Shown here piece by piece: positions 432 to 62,661 of a stretch of 64,000 bases of DNA; within the stretch, counting starts at the first letter, position 1; each line of letters opens with the position of its first letter. The notes beneath the pieces are model-generated. The model ran no database searches, was not told where the DNA came from, and worked only from the letters and a program-made list of their open reading frames with translations. The translations under genes were made by a program, and so were the position numbers. Source of the stretch: Methanothermococcus sp. Ax23 (GTDB taxonomy: Archaea; AGJL01; Methanococci; Methanococcales; Methanococcaceae); the NCBI RefSeq assembly GCF_049075655.1, contig NZ_CP157522.1, forward strand, positions 832,001 to 896,000, given 5' to 3'.

Positions 432-899
432 ATGCCAGAACATATACTCTCAGGGATTAAGGCAATAGTAGCAATGAAGCTAAAAAAGGAAGGAAAATTA
501 CAGAGAGAGATAGCAGAGTATCTAAAAATGGATAGGTCAATAATTTCCCATTATATACATGGAAGACACCCATCAGATAAAGTCATGAGAGTTTCAGAGG
601 AAATAGTGAATTTACCAGTGGAATATGGCATTAAAATCATAAATTCAATGAGTGATGACAGAGAGCTCACAAAAAAAATCATAGAAAATATCTATCAAGT
701 AAAAATCGAAATTGAAAGGAATAAGTGTATTCTCTGCGGAGAATGCCTTGAATGTTCTTATAATGCTATTTTTAGAGATTCCGAGCATTTAGTGAAAATA
801 GATGCTAATAAATGTGTATTGTGTGGAGAGTGCGTATCTATTTGCCCAGTAAATGCTTTAAAATTAAAAAAATTCTTACCAAATAAATTGGAGGAATAA
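432..899 (+). CDS. fwdH: FwdH: HTH domain plus 2x[4Fe-4S] ferredoxin
   Basis: N-terminal HTH (LQREIAEYLKMDRSIISHY), CxxCxxC motifs, first gene of fwd operon. Confidence 0.85.
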   Translation: MPEHILSGIKAIVAMKLKKEGKLQREIAEYLKMDRSIISHYIHGRHPSDKVMRVSEEIVNLPVEYGIKIINSMSDDRELTKKIIENIYQVKIEIERNKCILCGECLECSYNAIFRDSEHLVKIDANKCVLCGECVSICPVNALKLKKFLPNKLEE

Positions 900-901
900 C
901 A

Positions 902-1969
902 ATGACAATTGATGCAAAAAAAGAAAGATGTAATGGTGCCATCCAGATAGTAAGGGATGGAACTGTGGAAAGCAGAGTTCTAAACTGGAACGACAGTCCT
1001 TGTGTTGGATGCGGTATTTGTAGTGATATCTGTCCTGTTGGAGCAATTGAAATGGGGCCATTGGGGGCTATTTTTAAAGGTGATATTGAGGCTCCAAAAT
1101 TGGACATTGACAATACAAAATGTGTATTGTGTGGAATGTGTGCATCTGCATGTCCATTCGATGCCATGGATTTGGAAATAAACGGAACATCTATAAAGGA
1201 GCTCCCACAGTATCCAAAGATAAAAAGAGATATTACATTAAATCAGGATGCTTGCGTATTGTGTGAGCAGTGTGAAATTGTATGTCCTCAGTGTGCAATA
1301 GAGGTTGAAAGGGAGCTCCCTGAAAGAAAAACAATGGTATTGGGAGAAATTGGAATAAATAAAGAAACCTGTGTATTGTGTGGTATCTGTGCAGAATACT
1401 GTCCAGCTGATGCTATTGAGCTTATACCTAGTGAAATGAACGCTTTAAACTTGAATCCATACAAAGACATTGTAGTGGATACTGATGCCTGTGTATATTG
1501 TAAGGTCTGTGAAAAGGCATGTCCTCACAATGCCATAGAAGTAATTTGTTATAAATGTCCTCTTGCAAACAGAATTAAAAAGCCAGAATTATATAAGGAA
1601 ATCACTGGAAAAACAACAATTGACAAAAATCTATGTGTATCATGCAGTTGGTGTGAAAAGATATGTCCAGCTGATGCTATAGTGGTGGAAAAACCATTTG
1701 AAGGAGAATTGCTCGTAGATGAGGATGCATGTAATGCCTGCGGTGCATGTATTGCAGTATGTCCATGTAATGCATTGGTATTCCCAAAATCAGAAGGTCA
1801 GGCACACAAGGCTTCAAAGATTGCCGTAAATCAAGATGTATGTGTATTGTGTGGAGCATGTACTCACGCATGTCCTGTTGATGCATTGAAAGTTAAAAGA
1901 ACAAAAATAAACATGACAGAAGCAAATGCACCTGCATGGAAGAAAGCATTTGGAAAATTGTTAAAATAA
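902..1969 (+). CDS. fwdF: Formylmethanofuran dehydrogenase polyferredoxin subunit F
   Basis: Eight CxxCxxCxxxCP-type motifs, operon position. Confidence 0.93.
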   Translation: MTIDAKKERCNGAIQIVRDGTVESRVLNWNDSPCVGCGICSDICPVGAIEMGPLGAIFKGDIEAPKLDIDNTKCVLCGMCASACPFDAMDLEINGTSIKELPQYPKIKRDITLNQDACVLCEQCEIVCPQCAIEVERELPERKTMVLGEIGINKETCVLCGICAEYCPADAIELIPSEMNALNLNPYKDIVVDTDACVYCKVCEKACPHNAIEVICYKCPLANRIKKPELYKEITGKTTIDKNLCVSCSWCEKICPADAIVVEKPFEGELLVDEDACNACGACIAVCPCNALVFPKSEGQAHKASKIAVNQDVCVLCGACTHACPVDALKVKRTKINMTEANAPAWKKAFGKLLK

Positions 1970-2027
1970 GTATTGAACATCATAAAAAAATAATATGGTA
2001 GTAAAAACCCAAATGGTAGGTGGTTAA

Positions 2028-2267
2028 ATGTATAAATTGGAAGTATATCCTGAAAAGTGCCACGGATGCGGAAATTGTGTGGTTTCATGTCCTGTAAATG
2101 CAAGAGACCCAAACACATATGGTGGAAAAGGACCAGAAGATGAGAGCATCATAATTATTAAGGTTATAAATGGTGTAGTTAATATCATAAACGGCGATTT
2201 ATGCGGTGGATGCGGTGCATGTGTTGAAGCCTGTCCAGTAGATGCTATAAAACTCGTTATAAAGTAA
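2028..2267 (+). CDS. fwdG: Formylmethanofuran dehydrogenase ferredoxin subunit G
   Basis: 79 aa, two 4Fe-4S motifs (CHGCGNCVVSCP, CGGCGACVEACP). Confidence 0.9.
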   Translation: MYKLEVYPEKCHGCGNCVVSCPVNARDPNTYGGKGPEDESIIIIKVINGVVNIINGDLCGGCGACVEACPVDAIKLVIK

Positions 2268-2294
2268 AATGGAATAAAAAAAGGATTCGGTGAT

Positions 2295-2687
2295 ATGATG
2301 AAATTCAAATTAAACACTGGTAGAACCATATGGCAGGGAGAAGCAATCGAAGCCGGTAAAAATCTTGAAATGTATAGAAAAGCCGCAGGAGTTTGCTACC
2401 TCAACGAGGATGACATGGTAAAATTAGGAGTGGAAGATGGAGACGCTGTGAAGGTGACGTCTGAATATGGGGATGTTGTTGTAAGTGTAAAAAAGGCAAC
2501 TGAACCAATGCCTGAGGGTATGGCATACATACCAATGGGACCTTGGGCAAACTGTGTAGTTATTCCAGAAACTGAAAGTACGGCAATGCCTTCCTATAAG
2601 GGACCAATTGATGTGGAGATTGAAAAAACAGATGAAGAAGTTCCGATAATGATGGAGTTAATGAGGAAAAAATACATTGAGTGTTAA
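2295..2687 (+). CDS. fwdD: Formylmethanofuran dehydrogenase subunit D (molybdopterin dinucleotide binding)
   Basis: LNTGRTIWQG, IPMGPWAN motifs. Confidence 0.92.
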   Translation: MMKFKLNTGRTIWQGEAIEAGKNLEMYRKAAGVCYLNEDDMVKLGVEDGDAVKVTSEYGDVVVSVKKATEPMPEGMAYIPMGPWANCVVIPETESTAMPSYKGPIDVEIEKTDEEVPIMMELMRKKYIEC

Positions 2688-2711
2688 TAGGATTATCATT
2701 GAGGTGATTTC

Positions 2712-4415
2712 ATGGAATATATTATAAAAAATGGGATTGTATATGACCCATTGAATGGAGTCGATGGAGAAAAAATGGACATCTGCGTGAAGGATGGAAA
2801 AATCGTAGAGTCCGTTTCAAGCGATGCTGTGGAAATTGATGCAAGTGGATGCGTTGTAATGCCTGGTGGTGTAGATTCCCACTCTCACGTTGCTGGTCCA
2901 AAGGTAAATACTGGTAGGCTAATGAGACCTGAGGATAGTAAGAAGGACACATTTAATAAAAAAGGACTTAGAAGCGGAACAGGGTTCTCAATACCATCTA
3001 CATTTAAAACAGGATACGAATACTCTGAAATGGGTTATACCACAGTAATTGAGGCGGCAATGCCTCCACTGACGGCAAGACACGTCCATGAGGAATTCAT
3101 GGACACCCCTCAGATTGATAAAGCAGCAATGCCTGTAATGGGAAATAATTGGATGGTAATGGAATATTTAAAAGAAGAAAATTATGAAATGTGTGCAGCA
3201 TATGTGGCATGGCTTTTAAGGGCAACAAAAGGTTATGCTATAAAAATTGTTAACCCTGGTGGAACAGAAGCATGGGGATGGGGAAAGAATGTTCATGGTC
3301 TTGACGACCCAGTTCCATACTTTGGAATTACAGGTAGGGAAATTGTAAGAGGATTAACCATAGTAAATGAAATGCTTGGATTGCCTCATTCAGTGCATGT
3401 CCATCCAAATGATTTAGGTCATCCTGGAAACTGGGAAACTACAATTGAAACAATGGACTGTGCTAAGGATATTGAGGCAAAGCCAAGATATGGGGAAAGA
3501 GAAACTGTTTATTACAACACGCATGTTCAGTTCCACTCTTACGGTGGGAGCTCCTGGAAGGACTTCATGAGTAAAGGTGTTGAAATTGCTGAGCATGTAA
3601 ATAAATCAAGCCACATAGTTGTAGATGTTGGACAGGTAACACTTGATGAAACAACAACAATGACCGCAGACGGTCCAATGGAATATGACCTTCACATGAC
3701 AAATGGTTTGAAGTGGGCAAACTGTGATGTTGAGCTTGAAACAGGTTCAGGAATAGTTCCATTCATTTATTCACCAAAGGGACCAGTTTATTCAGTTCAG
3801 TGGGCAATTGGATTGGATGTATTCTTAAATATCGACACCAATAAGGTTCTTTTAACAACAGACCATCCAAACGCAGGACCATTCACAAGATATTCAAGAG
3901 TAATAGCATGGTTGATGAGCAAAGAATACAGAGACGACTGGTTAAACAACAAAGTTCATGCATGGGCTAAGCAAAAGTCATTTGTTGCAGACAGCGATAA
4001 AGAATATTCAATGTATGAAATAGCAAAGGTAACAAGAGCAAATCAGGCAAAAGTATTAGGTTTGAGTGCAGAAAAAGGTCATTTAGGTGTTGGAGCTGAT
4101 GCAGATATTGCAGTTTATGAAATAAATCCAGAAGAAAAAGATGGAAAAGTAATTGAAAAAGCATTTAGATATGCAAAATATGTGTTAAAAGGCGGAGAAT
4201 TAGTAGTTAAAGCTGGAAATGTTGTCAAGGAAGTATTTGGAGACACAATATATGTAAATGCAAAAGTAGATGAAGCACTTGAAGAGGAGCTCCTGAAAGA
4301 CCTCAGTGCAAAGTTCAAAAAATACTATTCAGTCAATATGGACAACTATCCAGTTTCAGACCACTATGCAAACAGTTGGAAAGTAATTAACATCGATGCA
4401 ACAGACATTAAATAA
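2712..4415 (+). CDS. fwdA: Formylmethanofuran dehydrogenase subunit A (amidohydrolase)
   Basis: GGVDSHSH metal motif, KIVNPGG, TTDHPNAGPF. Confidence 0.96.
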   Translation: MEYIIKNGIVYDPLNGVDGEKMDICVKDGKIVESVSSDAVEIDASGCVVMPGGVDSHSHVAGPKVNTGRLMRPEDSKKDTFNKKGLRSGTGFSIPSTFKTGYEYSEMGYTTVIEAAMPPLTARHVHEEFMDTPQIDKAAMPVMGNNWMVMEYLKEENYEMCAAYVAWLLRATKGYAIKIVNPGGTEAWGWGKNVHGLDDPVPYFGITGREIVRGLTIVNEMLGLPHSVHVHPNDLGHPGNWETTIETMDCAKDIEAKPRYGERETVYYNTHVQFHSYGGSSWKDFMSKGVEIAEHVNKSSHIVVDVGQVTLDETTTMTADGPMEYDLHMTNGLKWANCDVELETGSGIVPFIYSPKGPVYSVQWAIGLDVFLNIDTNKVLLTTDHPNAGPFTRYSRVIAWLMSKEYRDDWLNNKVHAWAKQKSFVADSDKEYSMYEIAKVTRANQAKVLGLSAEKGHLGVGADADIAVYEINPEEKDGKVIEKAFRYAKYVLKGGELVVKAGNVVKEVFGDTIYVNAKVDEALEEELLKDLSAKFKKYYSVNMDNYPVSDHYANSWKVINIDATDIK

Positions 4416-4489
4416 AACAGTAAAAATGTAATTAAAAATATTTTATTTAATTTTTAAATTTTAAAATTATATTACTAATAGGTGATAAA

Positions 4490-5305
4490 ATGGAACTTAT
4501 TCTTACATTAAAGGAAGAAATCATAGTTCCTGTGGAAATGGATAAGGTGCTTCCAGAAAAAGTTCAGGATTTGTCTGAGGAAGAGATAAAAAGCATCGAA
4601 TTGCCACAGGGAAGAACAACAATTACAGTTGGAGAGCTCTTCGATGTTGAAGTAAAAGAAAGTGAAACACCAAAATTGGTTATAAAAAACTCAACGGCTA
4701 AATTAAAGAGAATCGGAGAAAAAATGACAACAGGGGAAATAGTCGTTGAAGGAGATGCTGGAATGTATGTCGGCGTAGAAATGAAAGGTGGAAAGATAGT
4801 TGTAAATGGAAACGCTGACAGCTGGGCTGGACAGAACATGAAAGGTGGAGAAATAATTATTAAAGGAGATGCTAAGGATTATGTTGGTTCTGCATACAGA
4901 GGAGATTGGAGAGGTATGAGCGGTGGAACTATAATTGTTGAAGGAAACGCAGGAAATGAGATTGGAGAATATATGAAAGGCGGTAAAATCCACATAAAAG
5001 GAAACGTCGGATTGCTTGCGGGAATCCACCTAAGCGGAGGAATTATAATAATTGATGGAGACGCTGAGGCGAGAGCAGGAGGAGAAATGATAAAAGGTGC
5101 AATAGTAATAAACGGAAAATTGGAAGGAATACTGCCATCATTTAAATTTGAAGGAATTGTTGAAAATCCAGTTATAAAATTAAGTAAAAAAGACGCTGGA
5201 ACACCATTAACAGGCAAATACTATAAATTCAGCGGAGATTATGCAAATAACAAACCAAAAGGACAGCTATATGTGTCAGTTGAAAACAATCCTGATTTAA
5301 GATAA
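4490..5305 (+). CDS. fwdC: Formylmethanofuran dehydrogenase subunit C
   Basis: GXGXG beta-helix repeats (MKGGKIVVNG), YRGDWRGM. Confidence 0.95.
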   Translation: MELILTLKEEIIVPVEMDKVLPEKVQDLSEEEIKSIELPQGRTTITVGELFDVEVKESETPKLVIKNSTAKLKRIGEKMTTGEIVVEGDAGMYVGVEMKGGKIVVNGNADSWAGQNMKGGEIIIKGDAKDYVGSAYRGDWRGMSGGTIIVEGNAGNEIGEYMKGGKIHIKGNVGLLAGIHLSGGIIIIDGDAEARAGGEMIKGAIVINGKLEGILPSFKFEGIVENPVIKLSKKDAGTPLTGKYYKFSGDYANNKPKGQLYVSVENNPDLR

Positions 5306-6623: not shown

Positions 6624-6793
6624 ATTAAATATTTTTTCTTTTGCAGTGATGTATCTAAAAAATCTTTTTATATAGAAATATAATTTTTTATTTTATTTTG
6701 CCATCTCATAACATATAAATAATAAAATTATCATAATTAATAATGTAATTATTAAAATATTTTAGATATCACTTGCGAAGTAAGTGAGGTTAA

Positions 6794-6840
6794 TCGAAAT
6801 CTTTGATTTCGAGCAATGAAACGCTTCGCATTTCGTCTAA
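6794..6840. repeat. 47-bp double-hairpin element (TCG..CGA-GCAA-GAAA..TTTCG-TCTAA family)
   Basis: TCGAAATC-TTT-GATTTCGA GCAA TGAAACGC-TTC-GCATTTCG TCTAA; same scaffold and length as the insert at 62095-62141. Confidence 0.7.
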
Positions 6841-6865
6841 TATAATAATCCTCAGAGGGGATAAT

Positions 6866-37921: not shown

Positions 37922-37960
37922 TGAATCGGGACTTAATTTTTTATAATTTTTTTATTTTAC

Positions 37961-38329
37961 GATAAACCGCCGAGAAAGCCAACGATTTTAATCGTTATAC
38001 AAAACATAGTTTTGTAAAATCTCTTATGAGATTGGATTAGAGGCGGACATTATAATTAGTCAGTAGTAAAACATAAATATTTGAAGTTTCATAGTGAATA
38101 ATGCTACCAGTCCAAGTATCTATGGGTAGGGTTAGTAAAAACTCTACCGCTGGTAGTGGTTGGAAGTGCATAGCGTAGCCCTGAACCCATTAATGGGTAG
38201 GGGTAGTGGGCTTGGCCACCCTTGTAGGGTTAAACCCTGCTAAAATTAGACGAAATCACTTCATGATTTCGTTGCTCGCTTACTACCGTAAGCGAGAACC
38301 CCACGACTTCAGTCGTGGGAGTAGGTCAG
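37961..38329 (+). mobile_element. Non-autonomous IS200/IS605 mini-element, sibling of 61023-62541
   Basis: Preceded by TTTAC; left end GATAAACCGCCGAGAA..GAGGCGGACAT and right end CCCCACGACTTCAGTCGTGGGAGTAGGTCAG match the ends of the tnpB element. Confidence 0.9.
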
Positions 38330-57929: not shown

Positions 57930-58057
57930 ATCCCAAAACAGATTGGGTTCATATAAACCTATCGAACCGAATATTTACAATGAAACTTGATTTCGTCTAT
58001 TTTTTAGTTTTGGGATTTTGTAGTAAAGCGGAGACTTAAAACTTCGGTTTAGTCTAA
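57930..58057. repeat. Composite nested palindromic element
   Basis: ATCCCAAAAC (57930)/GTTTTGGGAT (58007) enclosing an imperfect ATTGGGTTC/GAACCGAAT stem and CAATGAAA..TTTCGTCTA; followed by AGACT..AGTCTAA. Confidence 0.6.
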
Positions 58058-60819: not shown

Positions 60820-61056
60820 GGTATCACGTTTTAGGTCATGATGTAATAGCTGATTACCATATAATTATAAATTCGTTTGTAAGAGAATTCGATACTCTAA
60901 TGTGGGTATTATCAAAAAATTATGGACTTGTTCATCAAATAGTATAATAGTCAGTTGTAATGTCATGACCACGTTTTATTTTGATAGTAAGTTGATTAGT
61001 TTTATATTATAGTATAACCATACTGACATACTCCCACGACTGAAGTCGTGGGGTTC

Positions 61057-61106
61057 TCGCTTACGGTAGTAAGCGAGCAACGAAATCACGAAGTGATTTC
61101 GTCTAA
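61057..61106. repeat. 50-bp double-hairpin element between tnpB stop and the right-end hairpin
   Basis: TCGCTTAC-GGTA-GTAAGCGA GCAA CGAAATCAC-GAA-GTGATTTCG TCTAA. Confidence 0.85.
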
Positions 61107-61108
61107 TT

Positions 61109-62373
61109 TTAGTAGGGTCTAACCCTACATGGGTTGCCAAGCCCACTACCCCTATCTCCGTTTAGGAGATTTAGGGCTACGCTACATGAAAATACTTTTT
61201 TCAAAATATTTAAAGCAGCATTCACATCAGCATTCAAAACCATACCACACTCACTACAAACATATAATCCTCTAAACTTCCTATTACTTTTCCTAACAAC
61301 TCCACAATTACTGCAAGTTTGAGAAGTATAAGCTTCATTAACCTGTTCTACTGTTATTCCCTTTTCCTCTGCCTTATACATTATCATACTTACTAACCTA
61401 CCAAAAGGTATCCTATGCAGTTTCTCATTGTTCTTTCTACCAATATCAATACTTGAAATGCCTTTGTTTAACTTGCCGATTACAATCCTTGAAACTTTGT
61501 TATCCACTGCAAAATCAACAATCATCTTACTAACCTTATGCAAATAATCCTTAGTATAATTCTTTTCTCTTACTGTTAAGCATGATAATCGTTTATTATT
61601 CTTTAACTGTTTCCGTGTTAGTTTGGGCTGTAGTTTTCCCTTTGTTTTAGCAAACCATCGGAATTTAGAAATTAACTGTCTCCCATCGTAGATTACTGCA
61701 CTGCCCGTATTGGTTACTACTGTTGCTAAATTCTTAATTCCTAAATCAATACTTAGTATATTACCTTCTTTGATAGGTTCTTGAATTACTGGTTTCTTAT
61801 GGATTAAGTGAAGTATGTAGTAGGTTATCCCATAGATGGTCTGCGGAACTATCTCAACTTCTTTAACCTGCGTGGTATCAAGCGGTAGAGTTTTCGATAA
61901 ATCTACCCATAAGTACTTGGACTTGATAACATGCTTTTCTTTGAGATAGTTTTTAGTTTGTTTTGATAGGGATAACCTTAACTTATTGCCTATGATTTTG
62001 AAACCTTGTTTCTTCCATTTTACTGGAAAGTGTCCATCTTTTGGTTGGTATCGTGGTCTTTTAGTGTGCTGTTTGAAGTAGTTTTGCCATGCTATCGCTT
62101 GCGTAGCAAGCGAGCAACGAAAACCGAAGGTTTTCGTCTAATTGAGAGTTTTTGACATACTGCCTGTGCTGATTGTGAGTGTAGGTTTTTAAACCAGAAG
62201 TTATCCTTCATTTGAACATCTATTTTATTTGGTTCAATGTTTTGTAGTATTACTTCATAATTGGATGTATTCCAGAGTTTTGATGCTGAGTAGGTTAAAT
62301 GGTTTATGATTGTTAATTGTTCATTGGTTAGTTTTCTTGTTAGGTTTATTGTCAGCACTCTGGTTACTTGCAT
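61109..62373 (-). pseudogene. tnpB: TnpB (405 aa when restored), interrupted by a 47-bp insertion
   Basis: Removing 62095-62141 restores ...QKLSIAWQNYF... and a single ORF with ILSIDLG, NEAYTSQTCSNC, CSECG, NADVNAALNI. Confidence 0.92.
62095..62141. mobile_element. 47-bp double-hairpin insertion in tnpB
   Basis: TCGCTTGC-GTA-GCAAGCGA GCAA CGAAAACC-GAA-GGTTTTCG TCTAA; exact excision restores the frame; no TSD. Confidence 0.88.
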
Positions 62374-62661
62374 GGAATTCACCAAATTTATATATATGCC
62401 ATTATTCTAACTACACTCATATATTATATAGGGAGCATATAAAAAAATGATGTCCGCCTCTCATCCAATCTCGTAAGAGATTTTACAAAACCTTGTTTTG
62501 TATAACGATTAAAATCGTTGGAACCTTCTCGGCGGTTTATCGTAAATATATAATTAAGTATTACTTTAACGAAAATAAAAATTATAATAAAATAAAATAA
62601 ATATAAAACAAAAAAACAAAAATGTGAGATAATATAAGGGAATGTAAAGAATGGTGAAAAT

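Follow-up and report, generated by a model that had tools for sequence, protein, structure and literature searches.

Origin of the split tnpB gene

The 64,000-nt stretch analysed here (the window; positions 832,001 to 896,000 of contig NZ_CP157522.1, contig C1 of the Methanothermococcus sp. Ax23 genome G000) contains a tnpB-only insertion sequence (IS) of the IS200/IS605 type, designated IS-I, whose tnpB gene is split by a 47-bp unit made of two adjacent hairpins (site A, Table 1). How did such a short non-coding sequence come to lie in this gene, and is it able to move? An earlier note, made from the letters of the window, had proposed a mobile repeat with at least four family members in the window. 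Our reading, which we regard as probable rather than secure, is that the unit belongs to a family of 45-53 bp non-coding DNA repeats of thermophilic Methanococcales that is mobile, now or recently, and that would move by a single-strand mechanism.

The unit at site A consists of TCG-stem-CGA, the linker GCAA, CGAAA-stem-TTTCG and the tail TCTAA. Its first hairpin is TCGCTTGC GTA GCAAGCGA and its second is CGAAAACC GAA GGTTTTCG. As single-stranded DNA, both strands fold into exactly these two hairpins, with a folding energy of about -16.7 kcal/mol (z = -5.8) against -6.0 for shuffled sequences, none of 200 shuffles being as good. The G+C content of the unit is 49%, compared to 32% for the genome. 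No Rfam covariance model matched the region 60900-62600 of the window at E values up to 10.

In silico deletion of the 47 bp fused two minus-strand frames into an open frame of 405 codons ending at 61109, whereas with the unit present translation ends at a TAG created at the unit edge. The interrupted gene has a match to PF07282 (TnpB zinc-ribbon/RuvC family) at C1:893205-893405, which corresponds to positions 61205-61405 of the window. Comparison with the paralogs that lack the insert (C1 431k and 1300k) revealed no target duplication and a junction ambiguity of 1-3 nt. Both the restoration of a 405-residue TnpB and the insertion without duplication, as described in the earlier note, were thus reproduced. 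The insert was also present in the assemblies of two other public runs (X1 and X2).

A repeat family with covarying stems

Units of this family share the order hairpin, GCAA, hairpin, TCTAA(T). The hairpins are perfect, with stems of 7-9 bp and loops that are mostly GAA or GTA closed by a C-G pair. A strict pattern of this architecture had 38 matches in the 1.67-Mb genome G000, while the same pattern read backwards had none across 41 genomes. An alignment (MAFFT) of 45 different units from 14 genomes served as the basis of a covariance model, which was used at E values up to 0.05 in G000 and up to 0.01 across the 41 genomes. The model gave 73 matches in G000, so that the genome-wide search which the earlier note had called for brought many further copies. 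Matches were found in 21 of the 41 Methanococcales genomes and in four of six genera (G031, for instance, has nine), but in none of seven genomes of the genus of Methanococcus maripaludis and not in the outgroup. No viral contig matched the unit core pattern.

In the alignment, hairpin 2 is paired at 99.6%, with GC replaced by AU in five sequences as well as AU, UA and CG swaps, and seven of the eight pairs of hairpin 1 change on both sides. None of 500 shuffles reached the observed pairing or covariation, and slid controls collapsed. The pairing of hairpin 1 is only 64% in the alignment because MAFFT misaligns several stem classes; a stem-by-stem listing gave perfect alternative stems such as TCGCTTGC, TCACTTAC, TCGAAGC, TCGAACC, TCACCAAC and others. 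The stems therefore differ between copies and stay paired, as had been noticed within the window, and both of them covary. Given the 38 matches against none for the reversed pattern, the folding z-score and the shuffles, a chance origin is excluded. Among hairpin 1 stems with a single mismatch there are eight G.T and no A.C mismatches. C-G-closed triloops suit folded DNA better than RNA. The GAA and GTA triloops closed by C-G, together with the G.T excess, hint at one folded strand.

Filled and empty sites

For the comparison of filled and empty sites in IS-I, ten full copies were aligned. In G000, five places of IS-I hold units, and at each of them there are copies that cleanly lack the unit (Table 1). 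At the right end, an allele that skips the 51 bases of site C was also assembled in runs X1 and X2. Homologous elements related to IS-I that encode both TnpA and TnpB occur in G024, G032 and G015, and the one of G015 provides a sixth site, where a 49-bp unit follows the left-end hairpin; this site is empty in G024 and G032.

Another pair of sites, R1 and R2, was found in an rve-type (DDE) IS of G017, a genome from another genus. This IS has no sequence in common with IS-I; R1 and R2 are both filled in two of its copies and empty in three, and each of them holds the identical 47-mer of site A. Outside IS, a unit in a thiamine-pyrophosphate (TPP) enzyme gene of G000 is missing from the 90%-identical ortholog of G003, which is 16 residues shorter, and the 75-base composite at 6766-6840 is missing at the orthologous spacer in G003 and G012. 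The comparisons of filled and empty sites cover 11 sites, with an ambiguity of 1-5 nt.

Empty sites and further copies thus both exist; the lack of the two was what the earlier note had named as fatal to its proposal. These clean pairs bear out its claim of a mobile repeat, and we consider that the unit is very probably a repeat that moves at the DNA level.

Alternatively, IS200/IS605 ends or the TnpB guide RNA could include the unit as a structural module, which gene conversion, recombination and horizontal transfer between IS copies would have spread; its solo copies would be decayed IS ends. A second tnpB family of G000, IS-II, does bear unit-like double hairpins just inside both ends, mutually inverted. 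Units and tnpB also tend to occur together: 16 genomes contain the two and 17 contain neither, while units stand alone in 5 and tnpB in 3. This relation is confounded by kinship and hitch-hiking. Furthermore, the IS-I copies are mosaics, which points to frequent conversion, all filled site A alleles have a linked downstream haplotype in common, and no mobilising enzyme was found with the families searched below. However, such a module would not be expected with the same boundaries at three unrelated targets, as the 47-mer is, two of these targets lying in a DDE-type IS unlike IS-I, nor would it be expected inside a host enzyme gene and a spacer that lack surrounding IS sequence. The left-end module of IS-II precedes the end hairpin in one copy; in another it follows the hairpin, with ATGAAT in front of the module, and this second position is the same spot as that of the insertion in the IS-I relative of G015. 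Finally, site A is filled on two different immediate flank haplotypes, defined by variation at positions -5, -4, -3 and +2. On this evidence an IS module appears rather unlikely to us.

One locus of G034 (L027, G034:C1:863220-863540) has the downstream flank of R2 on one side of the unit and the upstream flank of R1 on the other, when compared with the IS of G017 (L096, G017:C1:154994-158359). It seems from this arrangement that recombination between two direct 47-mers deleted the rve core and left a miniature IS in G034. Units may thus be a route to gene-less IS derivatives.

Anatomy and orientation of the insertions

The unit boundaries agree within 1 nt at all sites. On the sense strand of the IS, the inserted block reads (A)TTAGAC...GCG(A), and the bases shared by flank and unit (1-5 nt) are A, AT, ATT, ATTAG or T, with no duplication. 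The flank of the 47-mer on this strand ends with TCAA in three of four flank versions, and the words CTAA, GAAT, TAAA, GGGC and ATCG are found at other sites. The target preference is loose, and units usually follow an A-rich 3-4-mer.

Several ways of generating such junctions were tried and rejected. Duplication of 2-3 bp of the target (AT, AAT) does not hold for site C, the left-end site of G015, R1 or R2. As to a general microhomology between flank and unit end, no more than 6 of 40 canonical units match by 2 nt or more, fewer than chance would give with an AT-rich flank. A serine-recombinase (IS607-like) crossover needs two shared bases per site, and most sites share one. A link with the direction of replication was also discarded, by eye only, as plus and minus IS-borne units are interleaved along the chromosome.

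Insertions in IS are antisense to the IS gene in 10 of 11 cases, the exception being the weak unit-like module in the right end of IS-II. In host genes, five units are sense and three antisense (n = 8). An rve-type (DDE) IS has no single-strand intermediate. Since this type of IS shares the antisense bias, a landing of units in the single-strand circle that IS200/IS605 elements form on excision does not suffice as an explanation.

In two species, orthologous in-frame units of an ATPase gene (L004 of G032 and L020 of G031) have the same stem in hairpin 2, with the loop GAA in one and TTC in the other. This loop inversion is the kind of change expected from template switching across a DNA hairpin.

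The invariant 47-mer and older copies

When 40 genomes of the order were searched for the 47-mer with at most one mismatch, it was found in three of them (G000, G017 and G034), which represent three genera and two families. Its 14 copies occupy three target sites, all inside IS genes and always antisense, and no copy lies in a spacer of the 40 genomes. The sequence of site A is also identical in rve-type IS copies of the two other genera. Among the seven IS-I copies that carry it in G000, 236 of 1452 sites vary (mean of 7.7 per 47-base window), with no variable site in the unit. Of the 1405 windows of 47 bases, five show no variation, one of them being the unit and three others overlapping it.

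The stems of older units have diverged, and such units lie in spacers or in frame in host genes. The five units found in host open reading frames (ORFs) of G000 are all in frame, stop-free and multiples of three in length, and in other genomes in-frame units occur in the ATPase gene and in an eIF-2B-like gene. Deletion of any of the 33 other matches outside IS-I never restored a long frame on both sides, in a test which does detect site A. Since 47 is not a multiple of three, the 47-mer breaks the frames of IS genes. This is the pattern expected from insertion at the DNA level followed by selection, with frame-breaking copies persisting only in dispensable IS genes. At a NifH/CfbC-like gene, two species of the genus have a unit in the same position, directly before the start codon (C1 1043315-1043368; L009, G003:C9).

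Could the unit instead be a functional motif under conservation, for example a binding site for a protein, a terminator or a stabiliser of transcripts, that arose or was recruited repeatedly and spread by host selection? The ATPase-gene unit is kept at the same site in four Methanocaldococcus-group genomes while its flanks diverge, and the linker and tail are strongly conserved throughout the family. In addition, contig depth in the hydrothermal-vent RNA library X10 reaches 4734 over the right-end unit of IS-I, against 10-60 over the gene body, although contig depth adds up many loci and is no measure of expression. On the other hand, the position and strand of units relative to genes are inconsistent, the unit breaks IS genes, no Rfam family matches it, and selection leaves unexplained why identical 47-mers stand at unrelated sites with the boundaries exactly kept. 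A recruited motif is thus very improbable.

The depth of X10 contigs at 61006-61173 of the window, a region that covers the IS right end with its unit, is 750-4700. Site C lies in the stretch where we take the TnpB guide RNA to be encoded. The depth there would fit an abundant TnpB guide RNA, with the reservation just given on summed loci.

Intact frames of the interrupted tnpB genes

The seven tnpB copies with the 47-mer contain no other stop codon or frameshift. Their pairwise synonymous divergence (dS) reaches 0.33, and the ratio of nonsynonymous to synonymous divergence (dN/dS) is 0.13-0.24, the same as for two uninterrupted copies. There are two ways to account for this. The tnpB copies may have diverged while they were functional and acquired the unit only very recently, or else the protein is made despite the insert. 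A recent spread would have occurred through repeated insertion at the same site or through short conversion tracts, and the linked downstream haplotype favours a single origin of the local segment.

If the insert does not stop the protein, the 47-mer would leave tnpB active through removal from the RNA, through a -1 shift at G GUU UUC, or through a ribosomal hop from AUU to AUU or AUA. Production of full-length TnpB, and of the rve transposase, would then continue in throttled amounts, and the unit would be a portable recoding or splicing cassette in archaea. Besides the open frames and the low dN/dS of all seven copies, the absence of any variable site in the unit speaks for such a rescue. 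Moreover, the -1 frame is open from insert base 6 into the downstream frame, G GUU UUC lies 5 nt before the second hairpin, and AUU stands at both edges in one haplotype (AUU/AUA otherwise). No in-frame start codon follows the insert for 183 codons, so that re-initiation cannot rescue the protein, and in-frame units of 45 bp (site A') and 48 bp (site B) are tolerated in other intact copies. In library X10, one contig joins 62092 to 62147 through seven letters, which is the exact empty site, 47 bases shorter. It has the same flank haplotype (QNY) as the filled contig of X10, with a depth of 9.8 against 33, and its shorter side measures 23 bases. A scan of DNA metagenomes for this haplotype gave one record, which is filled, and among this single record there was no empty allele at the DNA level.

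These observations have to be set against others. Library X10 comes from a mixed natural community, and the contig, with only 23 bases on its short side, may represent an insert-free strain or DNA carry-over. The units of host genes are all in frame, which indicates that units are normally retained in the mRNA and translated. As a slippery site, G GUU UUC is not canonical, and the transposase gene of G017 with two 47-mers would have to be recoded twice. On inspection, the edges do not allow a bulge-helix-bulge motif to be drawn; an archaeal intron of this type was also rejected on the grounds that exon flanks differ between sites and cannot pair with the unit, and that in-frame copies argue for translation. 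Recent spread into diverged copies explains the intact frames equally well. We hold it to be distinctly improbable that the 47-mer spares tnpB, and that it acts as a throttling cassette of this kind.

Proposed mechanism and candidate enzymes

Mobility at the DNA level, which we favour over these alternatives, raises the question of the enzyme. The hairpins, the lack of inverted termini, the absence of target duplication and the strand bias have the form of HUH single-strand transposition, and HUH-type mobilisation is our best mechanistic guess. The unit would move as a folded single strand and would be cut and rejoined by a trans-acting nuclease/ligase that recognises hairpins, the best candidate being an IS200/IS605 TnpA-like HUH enzyme. 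If so, the mobilising enzyme would be absent from, or unrecognised in, the genomes that now hold young copies. Insertion takes place as a precisely bounded block, without duplication of the target. The youngest variant, the 47-mer, has entered transposase or TnpB genes of two unrelated IS families and would then multiply by riding on the IS. Older, diverged units survive in spacers or, where their length is a multiple of three, in frame within host proteins. Within this scheme, what the analysis showed is how the units are built and covary, which sites are filled or empty, how units are oriented and distributed, and that an in-frame filter acts on them.

A number of results weigh against this scheme. 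No match to Y1 (PF01797) was found in G000 (98.9% complete), G017 or G034, the three genomes with the 47-mer, and G000 has no match to Y2 (PF04986) or to reverse transcriptase (PF00078) either; Y1 occurs in only 7 of the 41 genomes. The unit hairpins are unlike the end hairpins of IS-I (CCAACGAT.., CCCACGAC.. and CACCGCCC..), and IS-II has its unit-like modules internal to the true termini. The sites do not share a fixed target word, the boundaries slide by 1 nt, and solo units show no strand bias relative to host genes. Hitch-hiking alone explains many copies, as 35 of the 73 matches in G000 lie in IS-I (site A accounts for 7, B for 3, C for 23, and A' for 1 plus a second partial match). In addition, the evidence is all comparative, and no event was seen happening.

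Movement by an IS200/IS605-type TnpA is therefore possible in our view, though doubtful, and the remaining expectation goes to an unrecognised enzyme. Concerning mobilisation in trans by an HUH (Y1) enzyme, as proposed in the earlier note, the form of the insertions fits, whereas the missing Y1 gene in the three 47-mer genomes and the dissimilar IS ends do not. The bias for IS605 elements claimed there stands as a bias for IS; as the 47-mer also lies twice in an rve-type (DDE) IS, it concerns IS genes in general. That note had also suggested looking for a tnpA or RAYT gene (RAYT, transposase associated with repetitive extragenic palindromes, REP) flanked by the motif. None was found at the one inverted pair of units examined, in G028, which flanks a membrane protein gene with no transposase between; this pair was accordingly discarded as a RAYT-like cassette.

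The second contig of G000 (C2) was considered as a source of an HUH Rep protein and set aside, as its large ORFs look primase-helicase-like by eye, no family search having been made. It is 7.7 kb long, has overlapping ends and a large ORF of this kind, carries no unit, and is probably a circular plasmid.

Comparison with known repeats

The double-hairpin elements (DHEs) of fungal mitochondria are described in passages of PMC10085805, citing Paquin et al. 2000. In those passages they measure tens of bases, form two adjacent stem-loops, are richer in G+C than the genome, lie in spacers and genes, and are presumed mobile with no known enzyme. The present units likewise consist of adjacent G+C-rich stem-loops dispersed in spacers and genes. 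DHEs belong to another domain of life and no sequence relation is expected, so that the likeness is one of form only and common descent is not claimed. Targeting of transposase genes is not known from DHEs. The 'byp' elements of Magnusiomyces (Lang et al. 2014) are reportedly related to DHEs and skipped by ribosomes. Among the compared systems, DHEs match the units most closely in form.

Palindrome-associated transposable elements (PATE) and REP/RAYT repeats, reportedly treated by Dyall-Smith 2011, Nunvar 2010 and Ton-Hoang 2012, resemble the units in being hairpin-based, without terminal inverted repeats or target duplication, and in their strand-specific behaviour. As in PATE, two hairpins fill the unit, its termini are not inverted and the target is not duplicated. 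However, at 45-53 bp the unit is far smaller, its hairpins are unlike the ends of resident IS, and no Y1 is present in the same cell in the genomes with young copies (G000, G017 and G034). Unlike REP/RAYT repeats, units are also intragenic, are not associated with a flanked RAYT, and hit DDE-type IS too. A REP/RAYT (REPIN) system was rejected for the lack of a Y1 gene in G000, the membrane protein between the G028 pair and the many intragenic copies. A miniature inverted-repeat transposable element moved by a DDE transposase was likewise rejected, as TCG.. and ..TCTAA do not form inverted repeats at the termini and the target is not duplicated.

Units in host genes, being in frame and stop-free, behave like palindromic elements with coding potential. 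Rickettsia palindromic elements (RPEs) are bacterial, 100-150 bp long and made of a single long palindrome. The unit differs from them in having two separate short hairpins with conserved single-stranded linkers. In the sections of PMC2229807 that cite them, RPEs are palindromic repeats that survive as in-frame insertions in proteins, which is the likeness with the units. The same sections cite short hairpin repeats of M. jannaschii (MJRE). MJRE and the units share the archaeal order and the form of short hairpin-forming repeats, some copies of which are in frame in protein genes. Suyama 2005 reportedly describes 141 MJRE elements with a mean length of about 100 bp. An invariant 47-mer, a targeting of IS and pairs of filled and empty sites are not known from that account. 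If MJRE2 is the present unit, the family was already known and only the behaviours are new.

In the literature searched, which left the original MJRE report out of the comparison, no description of this unit was found. What is new with respect to the literature compared is that one two-hairpin consensus holds across four genera, that 11 sites occur in filled and empty form, that the invariant 47-mer is found only in the genes of two unrelated IS families, that insertions in IS follow an antisense rule, and that a recognisable mobiliser is lacking.

If the proposed reading is true, few DNA elements for which comparison gives direct evidence of movement are as small as this unit, with its 47 bp, precise boundaries and no duplication. 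It would prey on other transposons across archaeal genera, in genomes without a recognisable moving enzyme. It would also raise the questions of what the minimal substrate for hairpin-guided single-strand transposition is, whether hosts or elements gain from silencing or throttling IS genes, and how short repeats become new protein loops. For work on TnpB, it is relevant that 23 copies bear a unit where the guide RNA is expected, and that seven tnpB genes which look broken may not be. Annotation pipelines will call such interrupted genes pseudogenes and miss the repeat family.

Further features and observations

The features are collected in Table 1. IS-I lies 3' of TTAC (GTAA at 62542-62545 on the plus strand). 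Its left end begins with GATAAACC, and its right end terminates with GTATGTCAG, preceded by the hairpin CCCACGACTTCAGTCGTGGG.

Table 1. Units, their insertion sites and host elements (window positions unless C1 is given)
Feature	Position	Strand	Size	Remarks
tnpB-only IS200/IS605 element (IS-I)	61023..62541	-	1519 bp	From alignment of 10 copies
tnpB reading frame	61109..62373	-	405 codons without the unit	Split by the 47-bp unit
Double-hairpin unit, site A	62095..62141	+	47 bp	Antisense within tnpB; identical in 7 IS copies of G000; 7 IS-I copies filled, 2 empty
Unit, site A'	27 bp downstream of site A		45 bp	Different stems; filled in one 72%-identical paralog
Unit, site B	near mid-gene		48 bp	Variant; 3 filled
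Unit, site C	61057..61107	+	51 bp	Between tnpB stop codon and right-end hairpin; 23 IS or miniature copies filled, 9 cleanly empty
Degenerate unit-like double hairpin, left-end arm site	62469..62505	+	37 nt	Within 3' arm of left-end hairpin; missing in IS-I copy C1 431k and metagenome contig L087
Gene-less miniature IS-I derivative	37956..38329	+		Bears site C unit, reverse, 38245-38295
Solo composite in spacer	6766..6840	+	75 bases	Extra hairpin TCACTTGCGAAGTAAGTGA, GGTTAA, 47-bp unit 6794-6840
Decayed half unit CAATGAAA..TTTCGTCTA	57978..57999	+		Second hairpin and tail; under model threshold
IS-II copies	C1 199570-201007, 336057-337959, 1308517-1309834			Second tnpB family

Besides site A, the covariance model matched 61057-61107, 38245-38299 (reverse) and 6790-6841, with E values from 2e-9 to 9e-5. 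The four or more family members first seen in the window were hence recovered, and the description of 57978-57999 as degenerate was fair.

Other observations concern the arrangement of units. In G013, two 53-bp units lie head to tail without spacer (L034, G013:C1:1310780-1311160), their first module being of the GAGCGAAGCGAA class and including the GCGAAGC mini-hairpin. Some units (C1 910419, 1263372, 1541075 and 1424304) follow another recurring hairpin, TAAAACC TAC GGTTTTA, and a GTTKT word, and RGTTT precedes many units. By analogy with bacterial interspersed mosaic elements (BIMEs), the repeats may be mosaics of several modules. Finally, an 18.8-kb scaffold binned in a Bacteroidales metagenome-assembled genome bears a perfect canonical unit at its end (L128, JASGMZ010000002.1, 18626-18775), which represents either mis-binning or a copy outside archaea.

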